Shown in pieces: positions 1-62,186 of a stretch of DNA of 62,194 nt (within the stretch, counting starts at the first letter, position 1; each line of letters starts with the position of its first letter). The position numbers and the translations under genes were made by a program. Source of the stretch: a virus (lineage: Duplodnaviria; Heunggongvirae; Uroviricota; Caudoviricetes); the IMG/VR virus record IMGVR_UViG_3300000304_000005, positions 64,001 through 126,194 of that record, one strand, 5' to 3'. The notes beneath the pieces are model-generated. The model was not told where the DNA came from, did not search any database, and saw only the letters and a program-made list of their open reading frames with translations.

Positions 1-1923
1 TATAATTTGCAGTGCCGCCAGATGTAACAGAAGACGCTACATCCTTTGCGAACCCAAGATTATCTTTGACAAAATCCGAAGGATTATTCGCCATATTCCA
101 AATATTTCTGGTGGCATCCGCATTAAGTACGCTATCATTCTTGGCAAGCGGGGTTAAGATTGCACCATCAGAAGGACGAACAATCATCTCCGCGCCTTCT
201 TCTTGCGTCCATGCCAACTGGTCAGCTTCAAGTTTACGTTTACCAGTTGCTAGAGCTTTAACATCAGATTCCTTAAACCAACCTGTATAACCCTTTGATT
301 GACTATGGTGCCTAACTAGGATATAACCACGACTGCTCTTTTGCAGTACAACATAAATTGGGTCGTTGGCGAAATATTGCCTGCCGCCTCCGTTGCCGTA
401 GGAATCTGCATAAATTCTTGCACTACCGGCATTAATTCTACCACCAACAGTAACCTGTTTCGGTTGTTCTTGCTGCTGGTTATTATTATCATTATTATTA
501 TTGTTTGCAGGGGGCGTTGGTTTTGTCACAGGAATATTATTCGCGTTATTATCATTTGTGCTTTGAATATTCTGCTGAGCTTGATTGTTCAGTGCGGTAA
601 TCATGTTCTGAATACCGACATTGATTTTCTCTAATGTATTGGCAATTGTCGTTCCGTTAGTCAAGAAACCTTCGCCGTACATCTTCAAAACATCTTGAGT
701 GCCATTTGAAGAATCCCAAATAGCCTGAGTTTCTTCGCTCAACTGATAACCTACGTTTGCAGCTTCAGCACTTATTACCTCATTAATGGAACTGGCATTC
801 ATATTGATATATTCAATCATATCGGCAATTAATGCATCGATATTATCAAGACGCATATTGAGAATGGTTTCGTAGTCGTTCCTCATAGTATCTAGGATAC
901 GCTCAATATCGCTAATCGCCTGTTCGCGTTCGGTATCCGCTAAATCTTTACGTGCATCATTAAGGTCGTTTGTAAGCTTTTGAATAGTTGCTTTGGTTTC
1001 TTCGCTGTTATCGTTGGCATAAGCTGAAAGCTGCTTCTCTAAGCTGGCAATGTCTTGAGTCTTTTCAGAAACTTCGTTTTGATAATCGTATAAATCTTCT
1101 TGAGCCTGAAGCGCTTCAAGATACTTGTCAATTAAATCATCTAAGTGCTGTAATTCAAGGTCTATACCTTCTTCAACAAGGTCTTTTATGCTATTCTTCA
1201 TGTCTTCGGCTGAAAGTATCGCTTCTTGCTGCGCTTCAACAAGCTCATAATACCTATCTGCCAAATCTAAGTCGGCAGGGTCTTCGGCCATCTGCTTTTC
1301 AATTTCCTTGATTTCCTGAGCATATCTATCAGCCTGATTCATTAAGATATTATATTGCTCACCATAAAGACCCATTGTTGCCATGCCTTTATCGGTAAGC
1401 TGTCCGTTATCCTCGAATAGTTTTTCATTACTCATTAAATCAATCAAGAATTGCGCTTCATCCGCGACAGAAGAAATTCTATCTTGTAAAATATCAAATG
1501 TTTCCCATTTGGTTTCACGAATAGCATTATAGTATTCTCGCCACTGATTGCCTAGTTCATGAATGGAAAGCGAAACCTCGTTGATGGCATCATTCTGTTT
1601 ATCCCATTCGGGAGTGCCAACTACCAATTTACCAGCATTTACCAAATCATCGCGCGTTTTTATCATTGCTTCGCGTTGTGCTCTAAGCTGGTTTGCCTGT
1701 TGATGCACATTGTCCATGAGGGCTTGATAATATTTTTCACTTACAAGATGGCCGTTAAGCTCTTCGCGGTCAACATAGATTTCCAAGTCTTGTTGAGTAT
1801 ATTCAAGAGAATTAAGCACGCCCTCAAACTGCTCTGAGACATTCTCAAATTTTTGATGTGCAAGGTCACCAAGAGATTCATTTAAATCTACAATTGCGTC
1901 TTTTGCATCTAAAGCTTTTTCAT
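1..1923 (-). CDS. Tape measure protein, exon 4 (3' end runs off the window)
   Basis: Reading frame appears open from 1921 to the window edge. Splicing gives ...QEW-Y-EKALDAKDAIVDL (TGGT|AT GAA). Contains an N-rich linker, an SH3-like module and ALATG...WTQEEGAEMI. Absent from the ORF track because no stop lies in the window. Confidence 0.9.
260..430 (-). other. SH3-like domain inside the TMP, paralogous to early ORF 61318-61554
   Basis: Manual translation AGSARIYADSYGNGGGRQYFANDPIYVVLQKSSRGYILVRHHSQSKGYTGWFKESDV. The SH3 call is inferred from the GWF..SDV ending. Confidence 0.7.
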
Positions 1924-3095
1924 CGTTGTGTTTAATTGATTCGCTACATCAATTGGATTATAAAATCCCACATGCTTTCACATGTGACCAGACTATATCT
2001 TTTACCTATAAACTAAGTTTTCTTTTAATGTTTTTTCTGTATTATCAAAATATAACATTAATAGTTTATAGGTAACACACCATTTTGAATCACCAATCGC
2101 TTGTGATTCTACAAATTATATTAAGCAGTTAAATTATATTTTTCAGAAAATTCAATACTACTTTTTAATCTATTGGGAAAATATTTCATATCAAATTTAT
2201 AATAAAACTCTTTTGGGATATATTTTAAATACGGTCTAACAATATCAAAAAATTTTCTAAAATTCTCCGCATTAAAATAAAGTCTATAATATACAGAATT
2301 TTTATGATTATTAATACCAGAATGGTCCTTGTGTATCTTTAGCTCTATACCAAATCGTTCTTTAAACATCTTCTGTATTTTACAATTCTCTTCATATGAA
2401 AACGATTGAGTGTTTAAATACCCAAAACGTTTTGTGCTATTGTTTTTTGTTGATACATGCCATTGTCCATCATCTAAGAACCATAATAATAATCCAAATT
2501 CATTAATGTGTTCCATTACATAATCGGATATTATTTTCTTACCACCATCATTAAAACATTTATTCATAGATTCAAAATAAAATTTTTTAGGTACTTTTAT
2601 ATTTATATGACTATACATTATCTCACCAAATGTAGTATGTCGTATATAATGATACCTAGAAGATGTCTTTAATCCATAATTTGAAAATATCTTTTCAAGC
2701 CATTCACAATAAAAATCCTGTTTGTCTGTATGCGCGTTACATACCCAGCCATTCCTATAATTTCCATCTCCCAAAAGTAATCCATACAAAGAATAAGTAA
2801 TTTCTTTTTCTGAAAAATCTTTTAAAAAGTTATACATATGTGAATCCTCACTCAAAATAATTAATATAATTTTAGCCGTTGAACCTTACTCTATTCGAGT
2901 CTTGGCTGCTGATTGCCCATTATTATATCCACTTAGGCTTACGCCATATGGTATCAAACTAATTTTTTCTGATTTCTCTACATATCGCACATATCTTTAT
3001 TTCATGATTATGCTGTAGTTTAGTTTGCTTTAGAGTGTCCCAGCAATTAAGTGTGATTCATATATTTATCGCTAAATATATGGGCATAATTAAAT
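1924..3095 (-). mobile_element. Group I intron TMP-I3 with LAGLIDADG ORF
   Basis: 5' exon ends in U, with P1 GGT|AT pairing to ATGCC. Core motifs TAATTGCTGGGA, GGCAATCAGCAGCC, GGTTCAACGGCTA, AAGATATAGTCTGG. Terminal G at 1924. Splicing restores the frame. Confidence 0.92.
2121..2855 (-). CDS. Intron-encoded LAGLIDADG homing endonuclease (two motifs)
   Basis: LYGLLLGDG and LLLWFLDDG motifs plus LNTQSFS. Lies between the R and S elements of TMP-I3. Confidence 0.88.
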   Translation of the reverse strand: MSEDSHMYNFLKDFSEKEITYSLYGLLLGDGNYRNGWVCNAHTDKQDFYCEWLEKIFSNYGLKTSSRYHYIRHTTFGEIMYSHINIKVPKKFYFESMNKCFNDGGKKIISDYVMEHINEFGLLLWFLDDGQWHVSTKNNSTKRFGYLNTQSFSYEENCKIQKMFKERFGIELKIHKDHSGINNHKNSVYYRLYFNAENFRKFFDIVRPYLKYIPKEFYYKFDMKYFPNRLKSSIEFSEKYNLTA

Positions 3096-9048: not shown

Positions 9049-10203
9049 TTAATTATGTGTTTTATAATTTTTAATAAATTCGTTCCATTGTTCTAAAGTG
9101 TTATCTCCATAACCATATTGCTTATGAAATTTTTTATGAACGCTTTCAGAAATACAAACATATGCACCGTATAATTCTTGAAGTTCTAAAAATGATTCCA
9201 TAAAATAATCTAATTGTTCTTGAGTATATAAACCAAAATCATCATAAATAGGAAAACTAAGAATATCAACACACTCTTCTAATAATAAATTAAAACTACG
9301 TATATGATGAACAACAATATTAGACCTCGAACCTGTAATTTCACATGTATAATCATGCTCTTCTCTAACTTTATTTCTCCATGGTACAAGTCGTTGCCTA
9401 ATATAATTATACAAATTATCATAATTAGAAATTTCTGTAGGCTTATGAAGATTAAGCAAATACATTCTAACTTTTATAGCCATAATAGTTCTGCCTAATT
9501 CATTACTCATATCTTCGTATGATTTATCAATATAATTATCTTTTAAATATTGAATCTCACTATCACTCCAAAGACGATTAAGATAAAAATAACTTTTTAA
9601 ATCATATTTTCTTGCCTGTCCTAAAATAGCGTATTGGGTTCTTCCGGGCAATAATTTCATTACTTCTGACATGGGTTTTATAGAATAATTATTAATAAGA
9701 ATCTCTACTTCTTCATTTGTCCATATATTTGCAGATTTCACAATTCCTAAATCAAGAGCTTTTCTATATAAGCTATGCGGTTGAATTGAACGATTAAGCT
9801 TTTTCAATATTTCTTTATATGATAGTTTACCATAATATTTTCTCAATATATCTTCGTCTTCTTTAGACCAGCACATTACTTCATGTTTGCACTCTTCAGA
9901 ACAAAAATGCTTCAAAGACTTATCGTATTTATATTTTTGAATTTCATATTCTTTACCGCAATTATCACAAACACATATCACCCTATTACGCTGTGCTTCG
10001 CCTGCACATTTTTTACTACAATATATAGTATTAGAATCATGAGCATCGAAAAGCTTTCCACAATTAGGACATATATGATTTTTAAGTTTTGAATTTTTAT
10101 CTCTATATTTTTGATAGCACACTTTAGAACAAAATTTAGAATTTTTAAAATAATTTTCGTATTCTTTACCACAGTACATACATACATGTTTTATTTTCCC
10201 CAT
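9049..10203 (-). CDS. Intron-encoded HNH-type endonuclease with N-terminal Zn fingers and Trp-rich repeats
   Basis: Repeated CxxC...CSxxC and W(S/T)xEE motifs. C-terminal CEITG...VHHI...CISESVHKKFH. Confidence 0.75.
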   Translation of the reverse strand: MGKIKHVCMYCGKEYENYFKNSKFCSKVCYQKYRDKNSKLKNHICPNCGKLFDAHDSNTIYCSKKCAGEAQRNRVICVCDNCGKEYEIQKYKYDKSLKHFCSEECKHEVMCWSKEDEDILRKYYGKLSYKEILKKLNRSIQPHSLYRKALDLGIVKSANIWTNEEVEILINNYSIKPMSEVMKLLPGRTQYAILGQARKYDLKSYFYLNRLWSDSEIQYLKDNYIDKSYEDMSNELGRTIMAIKVRMYLLNLHKPTEISNYDNLYNYIRQRLVPWRNKVREEHDYTCEITGSRSNIVVHHIRSFNLLLEECVDILSFPIYDDFGLYTQEQLDYFMESFLELQELYGAYVCISESVHKKFHKQYGYGDNTLEQWNEFIKNYKTHN

Positions 10204-10241
10204 ATTATCACCTGTATATTATCGAAGGGACAAATCATAAT

Positions 10242-10409
10242 CTACTTATAAAATTTTGATAATGCATCAAAAAGCATTTTTGTTTTAATATATTTATAAG
10301 TAGTAACACCATTAATGACTTTTATAAAAGATGGATTTATATCACAACTTTTCAAATAAATCATTTCAGGCGTATATTGCGTTGAATATTCTTTATCAAA
10401 TTTTTTCAT
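10242..10409 (-). CDS. 55-aa passenger ORF inside TMP-I1 (DUF5659-like)
   Basis: MKKFDKEYSTQYTPEMIYLKSCDINPSFIKVINGVTTYKYIKTKMLFDALSKFYK preceded by GGAG. Below the ORF-track cutoff. Family assignment recalled, not searched. Confidence 0.7.
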   Translation of the reverse strand: MKKFDKEYSTQYTPEMIYLKSCDINPSFIKVINGVTTYKYIKTKMLFDALSKFYK

Positions 10410-10709
10410 AAATATCTCCACATAATTAACACATCAACATGTTTCCATATTGAATAGACCATATCTTCACCCTCAGCATTATACAATTATCAAAGTACAA
10501 TCCGTTAGGGGCGCACCATTTCGAGCTACCATAAACTTGTAGCTCTACGAGTATATCACTCTGGTCGTTGAACTTTCTTCCTCATACAAATTACCATATT
10601 TTCTATATAATCTATGTTAGGAAGCTTAGCTGCTGATTATCCAATCCTTACGTTTTTAAACCTTCATATAGTAGTTTCCTCTATATTGTGGTGTAAGGCT
10701 CTACATAAT

Positions 10710-11378: not shown

Positions 11379-11494
11379 TATTATCACCTTCTTAAAGGTG
11401 TGTAAATTATGCGATAGGATTATCCTATCGAGGAACTCCCAGCAATTAGATGCGTACTAAACATATATTTCTATATGTACAACCTAGTTTTCTA

Positions 11495-13450
11495 AGCTGC
11501 TGCTTCTTCAAATGTATTTCCAGCTAATTCTAGTGCCGATGCAGAACGTGCCAATCCCTCGCCAAGACCGGCAGAAGTAATTGAATATTTATTATCCAAT
11601 TCGTTAAATGCATCAGCAATGTGGTTAACAGAAGCAACCACATTACCTTCGCCAAAATCTTGATTAAATGTATCTTTAAAACCATTATAGGCCGTTAAAA
11701 GGTTCTTAGATGCTTCGGCATAGTCAAGGTCTGAAATGTGCTGATACATAGCAGTAATATCAGCAAGCTGCAATGATGTATCTGCATCATAACCAGCACG
11801 AACCCAGTCTGCTGTAGCATTAATCGTATCAGTAAGAGTGGTACCATATTCCTTAGAAGAAGCAATCATATCAGAATACAGTTTATCATACTGGGCAGAA
11901 GTTAAATCCGTAACTCGATATAGACCGGTCATAGCCGTATCTACTTCAAGTACATTTTGCGCCATCATTCGAACAGCTTGAAAACCTTGCATAAATACAC
12001 CGGCAATACCAACATAAGATGCATATTGTCTAAATTGATTCTTAAGCCTATCACCGAAAGTCATCGTTGCCTTATCGGCAGTTTGTGCTTCTAGCTTAAC
12101 CTGCTGAAACTCTGATTTAAGATTATTTAAAGACGCAGAATCATTACATTGTTGTATTCTTGCTCTGATATTTTCAAGTTTGTCACCAAAATCAACAGCA
12201 GCAGCAGAATTGTTTTTTAGCCAAGATTGAATCTGCAAATCAAACGTCTTCTTTGATGATTCTAACTTTGTTAAATCCGTTTGATTTTTAATTTCGCGAT
12301 TGACACGCTGCTGCATAGATTCATTTGCTTTGAGCCTATTCTGAGTTACGGTTAATGCTTCATTATATTTATTTTGAAAACTAAGAAGCTCATCTATATT
12401 CCCTGTTTGCTGATATTTTGCCGAAGCATTACCGAATTCAGACCTCAAATTTTTCAGTTGTTCATACGCCTTTGTAAGTTCAGGAGTTTTATTAGCAATC
12501 TTATCAATACGAGCTGTTAATTGTTCAAAACCACCGTCAAGCGTTCCATTGTTAATTTTGCTAGCAAACGTATCGGCCATCTTGCGACGAGCATCTTCAA
12601 CCTTTGCTATTGTTTTATCTAAATCTGCTCTTGCTCTAGCTCCGCTTTCGGCTATACTATCAAAGAAACCATCAGGTATATTATTACCAAGTTTAGTTTG
12701 CAGCTCAACAGCCTTTTGAATAAGCCTGTCAATTTCGTTATCTATGGCCTTATATTGATTTGAGTTAACATCTAATCCGACTTGCTGTTTTTGCAAACTA
12801 TCCATTCGCTTATATGCACTAGCAAGCTCATTCATAGCAGCCTTAGTTTCAGATGCCTGCTGCTTAATGGCATTATTATGGCCTATATCACCATTTTTTT
12901 TCTGAATCATAGAGAGTTGATGGTCAACTTTTTCAAGCTCAATGGCAAATTCTCTAGCAGCAGTAACATCTAAACCATCAAAAATATCAATCTCGTTTGA
13001 ATCTGCAATCTTTTTTCTTGTTATTAATTTATCAAGATATTGTTCTAGCTCTTTTAATTGCCCAACATTAACGTCTGGATTGATAGAAAGCCTATTAATT
13101 TCTTTAATGGCGTTGTTAATTTCACGAATATTATCACGATATTCTTTTCCAGAACCAATCTGCGTGCTAACCTCAAGAGTTTGATTTTTTATATTTTTAA
13201 AAGCATCATTAGCTTTTTTTACAACACCAGAAGTATTAACATCGACATCTAATTTAACAGTTGCTTTTTTGCCAGACCCAACGCCAAGCGCTTTATTGAT
13301 TTGACTGGTCACTTGCTTGCTGATATCAGAAGCGTCAACATTAACTTTGATATCAAGCGTCTTATTCTCAAGAGAGTTTATTTTTTTCTCAAAAGCATCA
13401 AGTTTACCAGTATCAATATTAGTATCAACAGAAATTCTATAATCTGCCAA
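11495..13450 (-). CDS. Tape measure protein, exon 1
   Basis: 652 codons from a TTG start with AAGGTGGTG RBS. TP901-type core (VLEVDTAMTGLYRVTD...ADWVRAG...NELDNKY...GLARSASAL). The TAG at 11492-11494 is the first intron triplet. Confidence 0.93.
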
Positions 13451-38302: not shown

Positions 38303-39376
38303 ATCGAATTGGAGAACTCTACTAATTAAATCCTTAACGCTCGTATACACAGCATTAGTGCAGAACCATTCACGAATCCAATCTCGTTTATCGCATTCAT
38401 AATACGCCATGTTCTTTCTCACGGCATGTTCCAAAAACAGGTGTGGACTTCTCAAACAATCCAATTCTCCGTCTTTTCTAAACAGCCAACAGAACACCTC
38501 TCCGTTATCAAGAAGGCCATTAGGAGAATCGAACCCTAAAAACCAATGCTCGCATGCAGCATAGAAATCTGGAAGGATGAACGTATACTTCCCATGAACA
38601 TCGAGCTTACCGGCTTTACACTTTTTAACAATACTATCTTTGATACGTCGTAAATGAGATTTTGCGTATTCATCGTTTAACAGTTCAGGATAGATATCGA
38701 TACATTTTTGGAAAGCGGTTTTGTTCATATTATACGGTGTTACACCGAATACATTCTTGATATTCTGTATATTGCCGCACAGATTGGTTAGCTTATCAAC
38801 AGAAGGTTCGGTTATCTTCTCAATCTCTTCATCTGTGATGTCTGTCAAACTCTGTAACATCTGATAGTTGATTGTAGCGTCCTTAATCCTATCTTCCTCG
38901 ACATTCGTCACGCCTGCGGTACAATGATATTTCTTATATTTCTCTTTGTACTCGTCCCAGTCAGAATAGTATTTATACAATTTAAATTGGCTTTTTGAAA
39001 AGATGACCTGAATACCTTCGGCGATAATGTCATGTTCAACACCGTATATATCTTTGATGATAGGCGAGCATTCATGATAATCGATAAATTTCAGATAATC
39101 GAATACCCCGAGCAAGCCTTTTACAAACGGTAGGCGCACCATCATATTCTTCTGAGGAACACCGAAAGCATTAGGTAGCATCATACCGGCACCATCTGTA
39201 TGAGCGATAGGCTTATGTCCATGTTCGCGAGTAATGGTGTAATCAATATCGCTTACGAAATCAAATGTACCGAATACTTCCGTCTCGAAATCATCAATCA
39301 CGATGGACTTATCAATATCGAATTCTTTCCACACATCTGTAGCCGAGTTGCTTAAGGCGAGATATGCTAAATGTTT
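38303..39376 (-). CDS. yonO: YonO-like RNA polymerase, exon 2
   Basis: KHLAYLALSNSAT...HTDGAGM...VRLPFVKGLL...CLRSPHL...RVLQFD; 358 codons. Confidence 0.9.
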
Positions 39377-60302: not shown

Positions 60303-60420
60303 CTGAATGGCTTATCTCATTTGTGTAGAAAATATGTATTGAGAATTTCATCACGATATTAGAGCGATTGAAGAGTATAGTATTAGTTGTAAGGATAAGA
60401 CCAGCGAGAAAGGCAAAACG

Positions 60421-60960
60421 ATGGCTGTGAACAAGACCTATACTATCAAGCACAATGACTGGGATTATAGCGGCATGAATCCGGTCTATATTGATGATGC
60501 AGCGGGTATTATGGTTGAGCTATATCTCGAAAGCGATAAGACTGTTAAGCTACTTGGTAGTTCTACCAGCATGATTGACAATGGAAACGTTTATTATTAT
60601 GACCTTACGAGCAATTCGTTTGCAAACCGCGCATGGAACAATGCGTTTAGCGATATCAATGACGTGTTTGATAACGATGGAAACGTAATTGTTGATATTG
60701 ATGTGCCAGCATGGTTCATTGAGCACGCACAAAAGCTTATGGATATCGATAATGAATATGAGGATATCTTTGTCAATGCGTTTAAGGACTATAATGGAAA
60801 TGGCACGATTGATGATATTCGCGAGACTCTTCGCAAATATTTGGTAGATAATAATATAGATAGCAATGAATATGTTATCGATGATATTCTTGGTATCGCA
60901 GACGATAGTGGTATGCTGTGGTACGATTATGCTCGAAATCAGTATAACATCAATATCTAA
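60421..60960 (+). CDS. Acidic hypothetical early protein
   Basis: 179 aa, Asp/Asn-rich, after a boxed promoter. Confidence 0.8.
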   Translation: MAVNKTYTIKHNDWDYSGMNPVYIDDAAGIMVELYLESDKTVKLLGSSTSMIDNGNVYYYDLTSNSFANRAWNNAFSDINDVFDNDGNVIVDIDVPAWFIEHAQKLMDIDNEYEDIFVNAFKDYNGNGTIDDIRETLRKYLVDNNIDSNEYVIDDILGIADDSGMLWYDYARNQYNINI

Positions 60961-61009: not shown

Positions 61010-61071
61010 GTGGCGGCATGATACACCCTTTGTCCTTTCCGTGTTTGCTCCTTTCTTTATCATGCCGCCAC
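61010..61071 (+). terminator. Long-loop hairpin, possible terminator
   Basis: GTGGCGGCATGATA / TATCATGCCGCCAC 14-bp stem, with a T-tract a few bases downstream. Confidence 0.55.
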
Positions 61072-61317: not shown

Positions 61318-61554
61318 ATGAATATCGGATTTGTTGATATGACTAATGATATCCCGCAGCTTATTATTGCAGCCGGTGCGGAGATTTATAAAGATATTTA
61401 TGGTGGAAAAGGATATCACCAATATTTCGACAGCGACCCCGTGTACGTTATTCTGAAAGATTATGGGGATTATTACATGGTACGCCATCATTCGCTTGCA
61501 GATGGGATTACAGGATTCTTTAAGAAGTCAGACGTTCATTTGTATCAGGATTAG
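61318..61554 (+). CDS. Free-standing copy of the TMP SH3-like domain
   Basis: 78 aa, GGAG RBS; 30 of 57 aligned residues identical to the TMP segment at 260-430. Confidence 0.85.
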   Translation: MNIGFVDMTNDIPQLIIAAGAEIYKDIYGGKGYHQYFDSDPVYVILKDYGDYYMVRHHSLADGITGFFKKSDVHLYQD

Positions 61555-61562
61555 GAGTAACG

Positions 61563-61739
61563 ATGTTTGAGTTTCGGTTGGGTGTGCCGCAGATTATTAT
61601 GATTGCGTTAATAATTAGCAGCATTATTATTTCAATTGTTAATCATGGCAAGAAGAGGGAGCCATACAATGCATATAGCGTATTGATTGGTGCGGTATTC
61701 GAAGTCACATTGCTGTATTGGGGCGGATTTTTCAACTGA
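61563..61739 (+). CDS. Small two-helix membrane protein (58 aa)
   Basis: AGGAG RBS; PQIIMIALIISSIIISIVNHGKKRE...LLYWGGFF. Not in the ORF track. Confidence 0.7.
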   Translation: MFEFRLGVPQIIMIALIISSIIISIVNHGKKREPYNAYSVLIGAVFEVTLLYWGGFFN

Positions 61740-61754: not shown

Positions 61755-62186
61755 ATGTCTAAAATCACATTCGATACGGAAGATTATTACGATGATGATA
61801 CACTTCAAGAAATGATTGAATATGAAACACGAAGACTGATTCGCAAGCATGTTGAAGATATGTTTAATCGGAAAACAGATGGAGATTCTTTTATCTACTA
61901 TGTTGCACGCAGAACAGTCCAAGAAGAGCTTGCCGGCATCATACCAGCATATAAGATAGACATCATGCATAAAGTTGGAGATGTTATAGAAGCAATGGCA
62001 GATTATCAAATCAGGTATGATGATAGTTTCAAGAAAACTCTAAGTGAGTGTATTGAGGAATGCCGACCGATGATTAAAAAACAGGTGGAAGATGCGTGTT
62101 CGGAAAAACTCGATGCATCTTATCTTGTTGATTGTGTATGTGATGAGTTCTATAATATGCTGAGCAAGATGCTTGCGGATGATTAG
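61755..62186 (+). CDS. Hypothetical helical protein
   Basis: 143 aa, AAGGAG RBS. Confidence 0.75.
   Translation: MSKITFDTEDYYDDDTLQEMIEYETRRLIRKHVEDMFNRKTDGDSFIYYVARRTVQEELAGIIPAYKIDIMHKVGDVIEAMADYQIRYDDSFKKTLSECIEECRPMIKKQVEDACSEKLDASYLVDCVCDEFYNMLSKMLADD

Follow-up and report, generated by a model that had tools for sequence, protein, structure and literature searches.

To our knowledge, little has been established about how tape measure proteins (TMPs) act once they have left the tail, especially in Gram-positive hosts. Wall-active motifs are found in TMPs of phages that infect Gram-positives and mycobacteria, such as the Rpf-like motif of TM4 and the lysin domains of staphylococcal TMPs. 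TMPs are also the point of attack of certain superinfection exclusion proteins, HK97 gp15 being one. Others are Ltp of TP-J34 (PMC3952083) and T4 Imm, which sits in the membrane, binds the TMP and is no homologue of it (bioRxiv 10.64898/2026.03.06.709160). In the Drexlerviridae, the lysis module includes a stand-alone SH3 protein (DUF7244), relatives of which are fused to larger proteins (PMC13164509).

Here we analyze a window of 62,194 nt (G000:C1:64001-126194) from a phage genome record of 126,194 bp (36% GC; 93% complete according to CheckV), in which a folded module near the C-terminus of a TMP has a free-standing 78-aa paralogue. Like the TM4 and staphylococcal motifs, the TMP copy would be an accessory folded module that is delivered to the envelope at infection; it differs from them in its binding-type fold, for which no catalytic family match was obtained, in its fixed near-C-terminal place and in having a free paralogue. 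Like the DUF7244 protein, the free copy is a small phage protein that consists of an SH3 barrel only and has relatives fused to larger proteins. However, it represents another sequence family, comes from Gram-positive gut phages and is not beside a lysis cassette, and its fused counterpart is a TMP, not an endolysin. The earlier note on this DNA suggested a role for the free protein at the TMP step of DNA entry, which would liken it to Imm, Ltp and gp15, likewise small phage proteins centred on that step. Imm, Ltp and gp15 are anchored in the membrane or are lipoproteins, and they bind the TMP as it comes in, whereas the free protein is soluble, unanchored and itself homologous to a TMP; hydropathy, a crude measure, reveals neither a membrane anchor nor a lipobox in it. 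Nor does it correspond to the wall-binding subunit of an endolysin (PlyCB type, or CBDs made from internal starts), as the lysin lies ∼3 kb off and lacks the domain. In the literature on TMPs with SH3 or cell-wall-binding domains and on exclusion or decoys, we found no description of the module or of a TMP/free-paralogue pair.

The evidence below makes it very probable that the module is an uncatalogued SH3b-like β-barrel of ∼65 residues, standard at the distal end of giant TMPs in a large set of long-tailed phages that infect gut Clostridia, where it lies between a floppy linker and the last ∼140 residues. With the same confidence, we regard the 78-aa ORF as a genuine, selected and cytoplasmically made paralogue that belongs to an old stand-alone lineage and is no recent copy of its own TMP. 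What is new here is the occurrence of an SH3b-type module in a new host protein, the TMP, together with a lineage of free paralogues.

The TMP gene and the two copies of the module

Structural genes occupy one strand block of the genome, and the TMP gene is found there in several pieces with homing-endonuclease ORFs between them; on the opposite block are replication genes, small genes of early or middle type and, past the contig end, the lysin. Judged by its Pfam domain, the gene that carries the module is a TP901-type TMP. At the end of its first exon (window 11492–13450) is a PF10145 core that is cut short (E = 1.7e-10; 41.5 bits, cutoff 33.2). A relative has an uninterrupted protein of 2132 aa that bears the module at its C-terminal end, and there PF10145 is present whole (E = 4.7e-23). 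A LAGLIDADG homing endonuclease ORF (PF03161, E = 2.5e-22; window 2121–2855, minus strand) separates the final two TMP pieces. This ORF and the cut-off PF10145 fit a TMP gene split by group I introns.

The last TMP exon is an ORF on the minus strand (window 2–1819) that is open at the window start; on the full genome it covers 63834–65819 and encodes 661 aa. Residues 456–522 of this ORF (window 254–454, minus strand) constitute the module and include the segment at 260–430 to which the earlier note had drawn attention. In the translation, the module is preceded by a low-complexity linker of 48 residues rich in N, Q and P (455–598, minus strand), and comparable linkers stand ahead of it in the TMPs of relatives. 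About 140 residues of the exon come after the module, and the C-terminal tail of the TMP is conserved in 380 proteins. One TMP with a closely related tail (P0271) has another β-rich domain (residues 447–540) in the slot of the SH3 module, for which we obtained no Pfam or Atlas lead and an hhalign E of 0.0055 only. The presence of a different domain in the same slot suggests domain swapping, consistent with a swappable binding module. In some relatives, among them P0029 (206 aa) and L071, the last TMP ORF begins only a few residues ahead of the SH3 module. This looks like the effect of an intron or break directly upstream, and is a possible route for a stand-alone copy to arise.

The free copy is encoded at 61318–61554 on the plus strand. 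BLASTP aligns it with residues 462–520 of the last TMP exon at 32/59 identities with one gap (E = 8e-18), and hence the similarity first noticed from the sequence alone (30/57, one gap) is real. The ORF is essentially the module alone, and it lies 61 kb from the TMP copy, on the opposite strand and adjacent to a small hydrophobic ORF of 58 aa, all as previously described. When the full 126,194-bp record was searched in six frames with the free protein, the TMP copy was recovered at E = 3.8e-16, and no further copy in the 126-kb genome reaches significance. A third, weak match (window 38972–39160, minus strand; E = 0.0035, 32% identity) falls in a 346-aa ORF without a Pfam family and was taken as chance.

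Fold and distribution of the module

AF2 predicts that the free protein is a five-stranded barrel (63-row alignment; pLDDT 80.5, pTM 0.67). For the last 215 residues of the TMP (40-row alignment), pLDDT is 81–91 in the module versus 44–65 elsewhere. Only the module part of this C-terminus folds confidently, which argues that the segment following the N/Q-rich linker is a discrete module, as had been surmised. The top 50 Foldseek matches in the PDB are all SH3 domains, with probabilities of 0.9–0.99 but E values of only 0.04–0.2. VIA, which is independent of Foldseek, gave as its best match the wall-binding SH3b of AtlE R2ab (Z 6.8, rmsd 2.7 over 65 residues); further top matches were NlpC/P60 SH3b, LytB, InlB and the binding domains of the phiSM101 (Psm) and LysPBC5 lysins. 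The five-stranded barrel is shared with the SH3b wall-binding domains (AtlE R2ab/GW repeats, N-terminal SH3b of NlpC/P60, Psm of phiSM101, LysPBC5) at Z 5.5–6.8 and rmsd 2.4–3.7 over 61–73 residues, and Z values in this range make only a common fold certain. Language-model features score 0.96 against ‘SH3b domain-containing’ clusters, and the matching AFDB clusters bear SH3b names. Thus AF2, Foldseek, VIA, AFDB clusters and language-model features agree, and the suggestion that the module is SH3-like is borne out: the predicted models support its assignment to the SH3/SH3b fold class, with a five-stranded SH3-type β-barrel.

At the level of sequence, the family to which the module belongs is uncatalogued, and the gathering thresholds of curated SH3 families are not reached. 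The free protein matches no Pfam family at E ≤ 1, and the TMP C-terminus matches none either (SH3_3 PF08239, SH3_5, SH3b2 PF23795 and DUF7244 included). The nearest curated SH3 family is PF23795, which one homologue hits with E = 0.022 and 15 bits against a cutoff of 27.4. No PHROG or NCBIfam model matches either copy. The module therefore differs from the known SH3b wall binders in having no significant SH3 Pfam match, and also in being placed in a TMP and not in a hydrolase; the TMP copy is basic, as many wall binders are. A profile search of the PDB gave sub-threshold matches only, to picornavirus VP4 (E = 0.02) and to the SH3 domain of intersectin (E = 0.5). Positions 5–42 of the module profile produced sub-threshold PDB matches (E = 0.02–0.07) to the N-terminal region of enterovirus VP4. 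VP4 is a capsid peptide released for genome delivery; the resemblance is probably compositional chance.

Against 1.84 billion representatives, the module profile identified 271 clusters (50% identity), 245 of them below 1e-10. About 90% of the 271 are giant TMPs, mostly of 1,500–5,500 residues, in which the module sits roughly 160–210 residues from the C-terminus, and small stand-alone proteins (73–140 aa) make up 12 of the best 150 clusters. We also fetched 70 loci from species genomes and metagenomes. The module lies 158–207 residues before the stop of a long frame in 66 of them, another two (L032, L035) are stand-alone and the remaining two (L049, L071) ambiguous; none of the contigs in this set, which includes 11 metagenome contigs >100 kb, was matched twice. 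The carriers among MAGs are titled Faecalimonas, Lachnospiraceae, Ruminococcus, Oscillospiraceae and Tyzzerella. Fourteen other records were searched whole, namely 10 MAGs and 4 IMG/VR records (three of the latter ≥97% complete), and all 14 contain exactly one copy, of the TMP type. Both copies in one genome are shown for this genome only. Among GenBank phages, the free ORF is matched neither in DNA nor in protein, and the TMP has a single distant match (MT835469). By this distribution, the TMP-borne form is the usual one and the free gene an infrequent addition. The earlier note had proposed to look in related phages for both forms: homologues of the free ORF do exist there (at least 11 clusters), but a free copy is missing from most phages that have the TMP module.

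The free-standing gene, its ancestry and its surroundings

The free ORF lies ∼0.9 kb from the contig end, and GGAG stands 7 nt ahead of its ATG. Its homologues fall into at least 11 clusters of 52–94% identity, with the same length, an MNIG start and invariant motifs. Values of dN/dS are 0.09 against the L012 homologue (dS 0.42), 0.14 against L008 and 0.23 for L011 versus L014. These data indicate purifying selection on the stand-alone ORF, the lack of which the earlier note would have held against its own proposal. One homologue (L016:1840-2082) can be read only with TAG as Q, and hence the family also occurs in a stop-codon-recoded phage. By hydropathy, the free copies contain no signal peptide or membrane segment, save for one C-terminal extension; on this crude measure, the 19-residue maximum is 1.0 for the protein studied here and <1.0 for 19 of the 20 other free copies.

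Between the ORF at 60421–60960 and the free SH3 gene, 250 nt 5′ of the latter, is a hairpin (61010–61071, plus strand) with perfect 14-bp arms, 34 nt in the loop and a C/T-rich (T) run behind it; the hairpin is terminator-like or else an RNA stem. The tandem-box promoters stop at 60322, and no such box was found ahead of the free ORF. As the ORF lies past both the last recognizable tandem-box promoter and the hairpin, the label ‘early’ formerly attached to the gene finds no support.

How are the free and TMP copies related? In a maximum-likelihood tree that includes short flanks, one branch (99/93 support) splits them, while on the 58 core columns alone the free/TMP labels need two changes. 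The free copy of this phage clusters with other free copies, whose branches are long. Identity to its own TMP module is 53%, compared to a median of 52% for 41 TMP modules, and its own module ranks 9th of the 41. This places it at the level of any other pair and shows that it did not arise recently from this TMP; we rejected a recent duplication and gene conversion on the basis of the tree and the identity ranking. By the same comparison, there is no sign of the co-evolution or special likeness of the two copies that had been envisaged. Conserved in both classes are 23 positions, among them Q35, D40, R56, H57, H58, T65, K69, K70 and D72. The free copy studied here retains all 23, and no position is fixed differently between the classes, which argues for the same ligand in both. 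The two classes are dissimilar in charge. TMP modules are basic, with a median core pI of 9.2 (pI 9.8 and charge +5 for the module of this TMP), whereas the free copies are variable, with a median pI of 6.9; the one in this phage is acidic (pI 5.0, charge –5), and so its binding properties may differ from those of the TMP module.

Downstream of the free gene are a 58-aa ORF with two predicted membrane helices (61563–61739, plus strand; phrog_5479, E = 4.6e-13; hydropathy 2.57) and a 143-aa acidic ORF (61755–62186, plus strand), near-identical counterparts of which come after the SH3 gene(s) of L008 and L012. In this phage, in L012, in L008 and on the P0007 contig, the free gene is the first of a syntenic series of small ORFs, which closes ∼3 kb on, on the same strand, with an SLH-bearing lysin and a Band_7 gene. 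The phrog_5479 ORF comes directly after the free gene here and in L012. L008 (129 kb) carries two tandem, diverged free SH3 genes at 10001–10472, which are 52% identical and overlap by 11 nt, and the second of these occupies the slot of the 58-aa membrane ORF. Elsewhere (L011, L014, L015 and L017) the downstream ORFs are unrelated or soluble and the membrane ORF is absent or unrelated; L013 has an unrelated 58-aa membrane ORF after the free gene. On the basis of these loci we rejected the membrane ORF as a functional partner, and the small membrane gene to which the earlier note had pointed is not a conserved companion.

Other surroundings vary as well. The free gene is found downstream of a PM0253-family ORF (L013, L016), directly after a lysin/Band_7 cluster (L015), amid small cysteine-rich ORFs (L017), and in replication or nucleotide-metabolism contexts (L011, L013, L014). 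In L011:9446-10701 and L014:2449-3713, it lies between two proteins that start with a near-invariant VFETNSSSTHS tag. Overall, it behaves like a mobile accessory gene. The lysin of this phage (genome 2254–3420; L088) combines Amidase_5/NlpC-P60, ELLD and three SLH repeats and contains no copy of the SH3 module. In the lysins of relatives, the catalytic part is swapped (CHAP or Amidase_2) and SLH is kept, and this retention points to hosts with SLH-binding wall polymers.

What the free protein may do

We tentatively favor competition for, or mimicry at, a common ligand, ahead of a wall binder acting at lysis, an unrelated cytoplasmic target and a role in assembly, in that order; as set out below, even this first choice is only a possible one. 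The basic TMP barrel would be a ligand-binding module for a conserved component of the host envelope, which it would meet upon expulsion of the TMP tip during infection. The free copy, with all conserved polar residues retained, probably binds the ligand of the TMP module. As a soluble protein it could then compete with the incoming TMP tip or mimic it, and so, for example, hinder DNA entry by later related phages. In favor of this reading are the SH3/SH3b fold, the embedding of the module in the TMP at a fixed distance from the C-terminus, and the fact that the free ORF is under selection, lacks a signal peptide or TM segment and has its conserved positions in common with the TMP class. Free copies form a lineage of their own, absent from all 14 other records (TMP copy only) and in one case duplicated in tandem; carriage by a minority and one duplication are as expected for an optional competitive gene. 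The different domain in the P0271 slot fits a swappable binding module, and phage exclusion proteins that act on the TMP do exist, as exemplified by T4 Imm (bioRxiv 10.64898/2026.03.06.709160). Yet a shared fold alone shows no function, and the ligand is only postulated; if it is the cell wall, a cytoplasmic protein could not reach it before lysis. The free copy and the TMP module of this phage are of opposite charge and show no sign of co-evolution, and this genome alone is known to hold both. The TMP-directed exclusion proteins known so far are lipoproteins or reside in the membrane and are no TMP look-alikes, and the ORF lies beyond the last tandem-box promoter and the terminator-like hairpin. 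A complex prediction for the free protein with the C-terminal 215 residues of the TMP gave a score of 0.00 without a verdict and weighs on neither side. The specific proposal that a soluble mimic of the tip module occupies a host ligand or sensor, and thereby blocks related phages or blinds a defence that detects the TMP, we consider unlikely.

Canonical endolysins likewise lack signal peptides, and a free barrel could leave the cell with the endolysin through holin lesions, bind the wall and aid lysis or mask sites on debris, much as a separate wall-binding subunit would. We give this somewhat less credence than competition for a ligand. The top structural matches are the wall-binding SH3b domains of autolysins and phage lysins, the free gene lies ∼3 kb upstream of the SLH lysin on the same strand here and in three relatives, its L015 counterpart directly follows lysin/Band_7, and stand-alone SH3 genes beside lysis cassettes have been described in the Drexlerviridae (PMC13164509). 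On the other hand, about nine small ORFs intervene between the free gene and the lysin, the surroundings of the copies in L011, L013 and L014 are those of replication or nucleotide metabolism, the lysin does without this domain and is already equipped for wall binding with three SLH repeats, there is no Pfam DUF7244 match, and an acidic protein would be unusual in such a role. The long branches of an old, separate lineage, the varying contexts among small accessory genes, the cytoplasmic synthesis of the protein and its divergence in charge from the TMP module would all suit a host-takeover factor that has long been independent of the TMP and binds a cytoplasmic host component (e.g. a wall-precursor peptide or a protein), unrelated to DNA entry; we hold this to be improbable, as the conserved polar positions are all common to the TMP copies, which argues for one ligand. 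In siphophage assembly, this end of the TMP nucleates the tail tip, and outside the module the TMP C-terminus gives no confident fold by itself, a hint at partners; the TMP barrel might dock on a tail-tip protein, with the free copy joining or regulating that step as a virion component or assembly factor. Such a role is quite improbable, given that the free gene is remote from the structural genes, in the block of the other strand, and that its absence from 14/14 other module-bearing records shows it is not needed for assembly. Finally, the small size of the gene, and nothing else, might suggest chance similarity or a decaying, functionless fragment. This is already refuted by the match between the copies (E = 8e-18), at least 11 homologue clusters, dN/dS of 0.09–0.23, the conserved start and Shine-Dalgarno sequence, and the confident fold, and we assign it practically no weight.

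Our work defines an uncatalogued and very widespread folded module at the business end of the giant TMPs of human-gut Clostridia phages, and shows that some of these phages also carry the module as a separate small gene. The TMP/free pair offers a handle on the ligand of the module, with the free protein as a ready-made soluble probe, and it makes the idea of exclusion by mimicry testable. Should the free copy be simply a wall binder or a takeover factor, it would still represent a new domain family worth annotating. Self-mimicry, if true, would constitute a form of exclusion or anti-defence not described to date.
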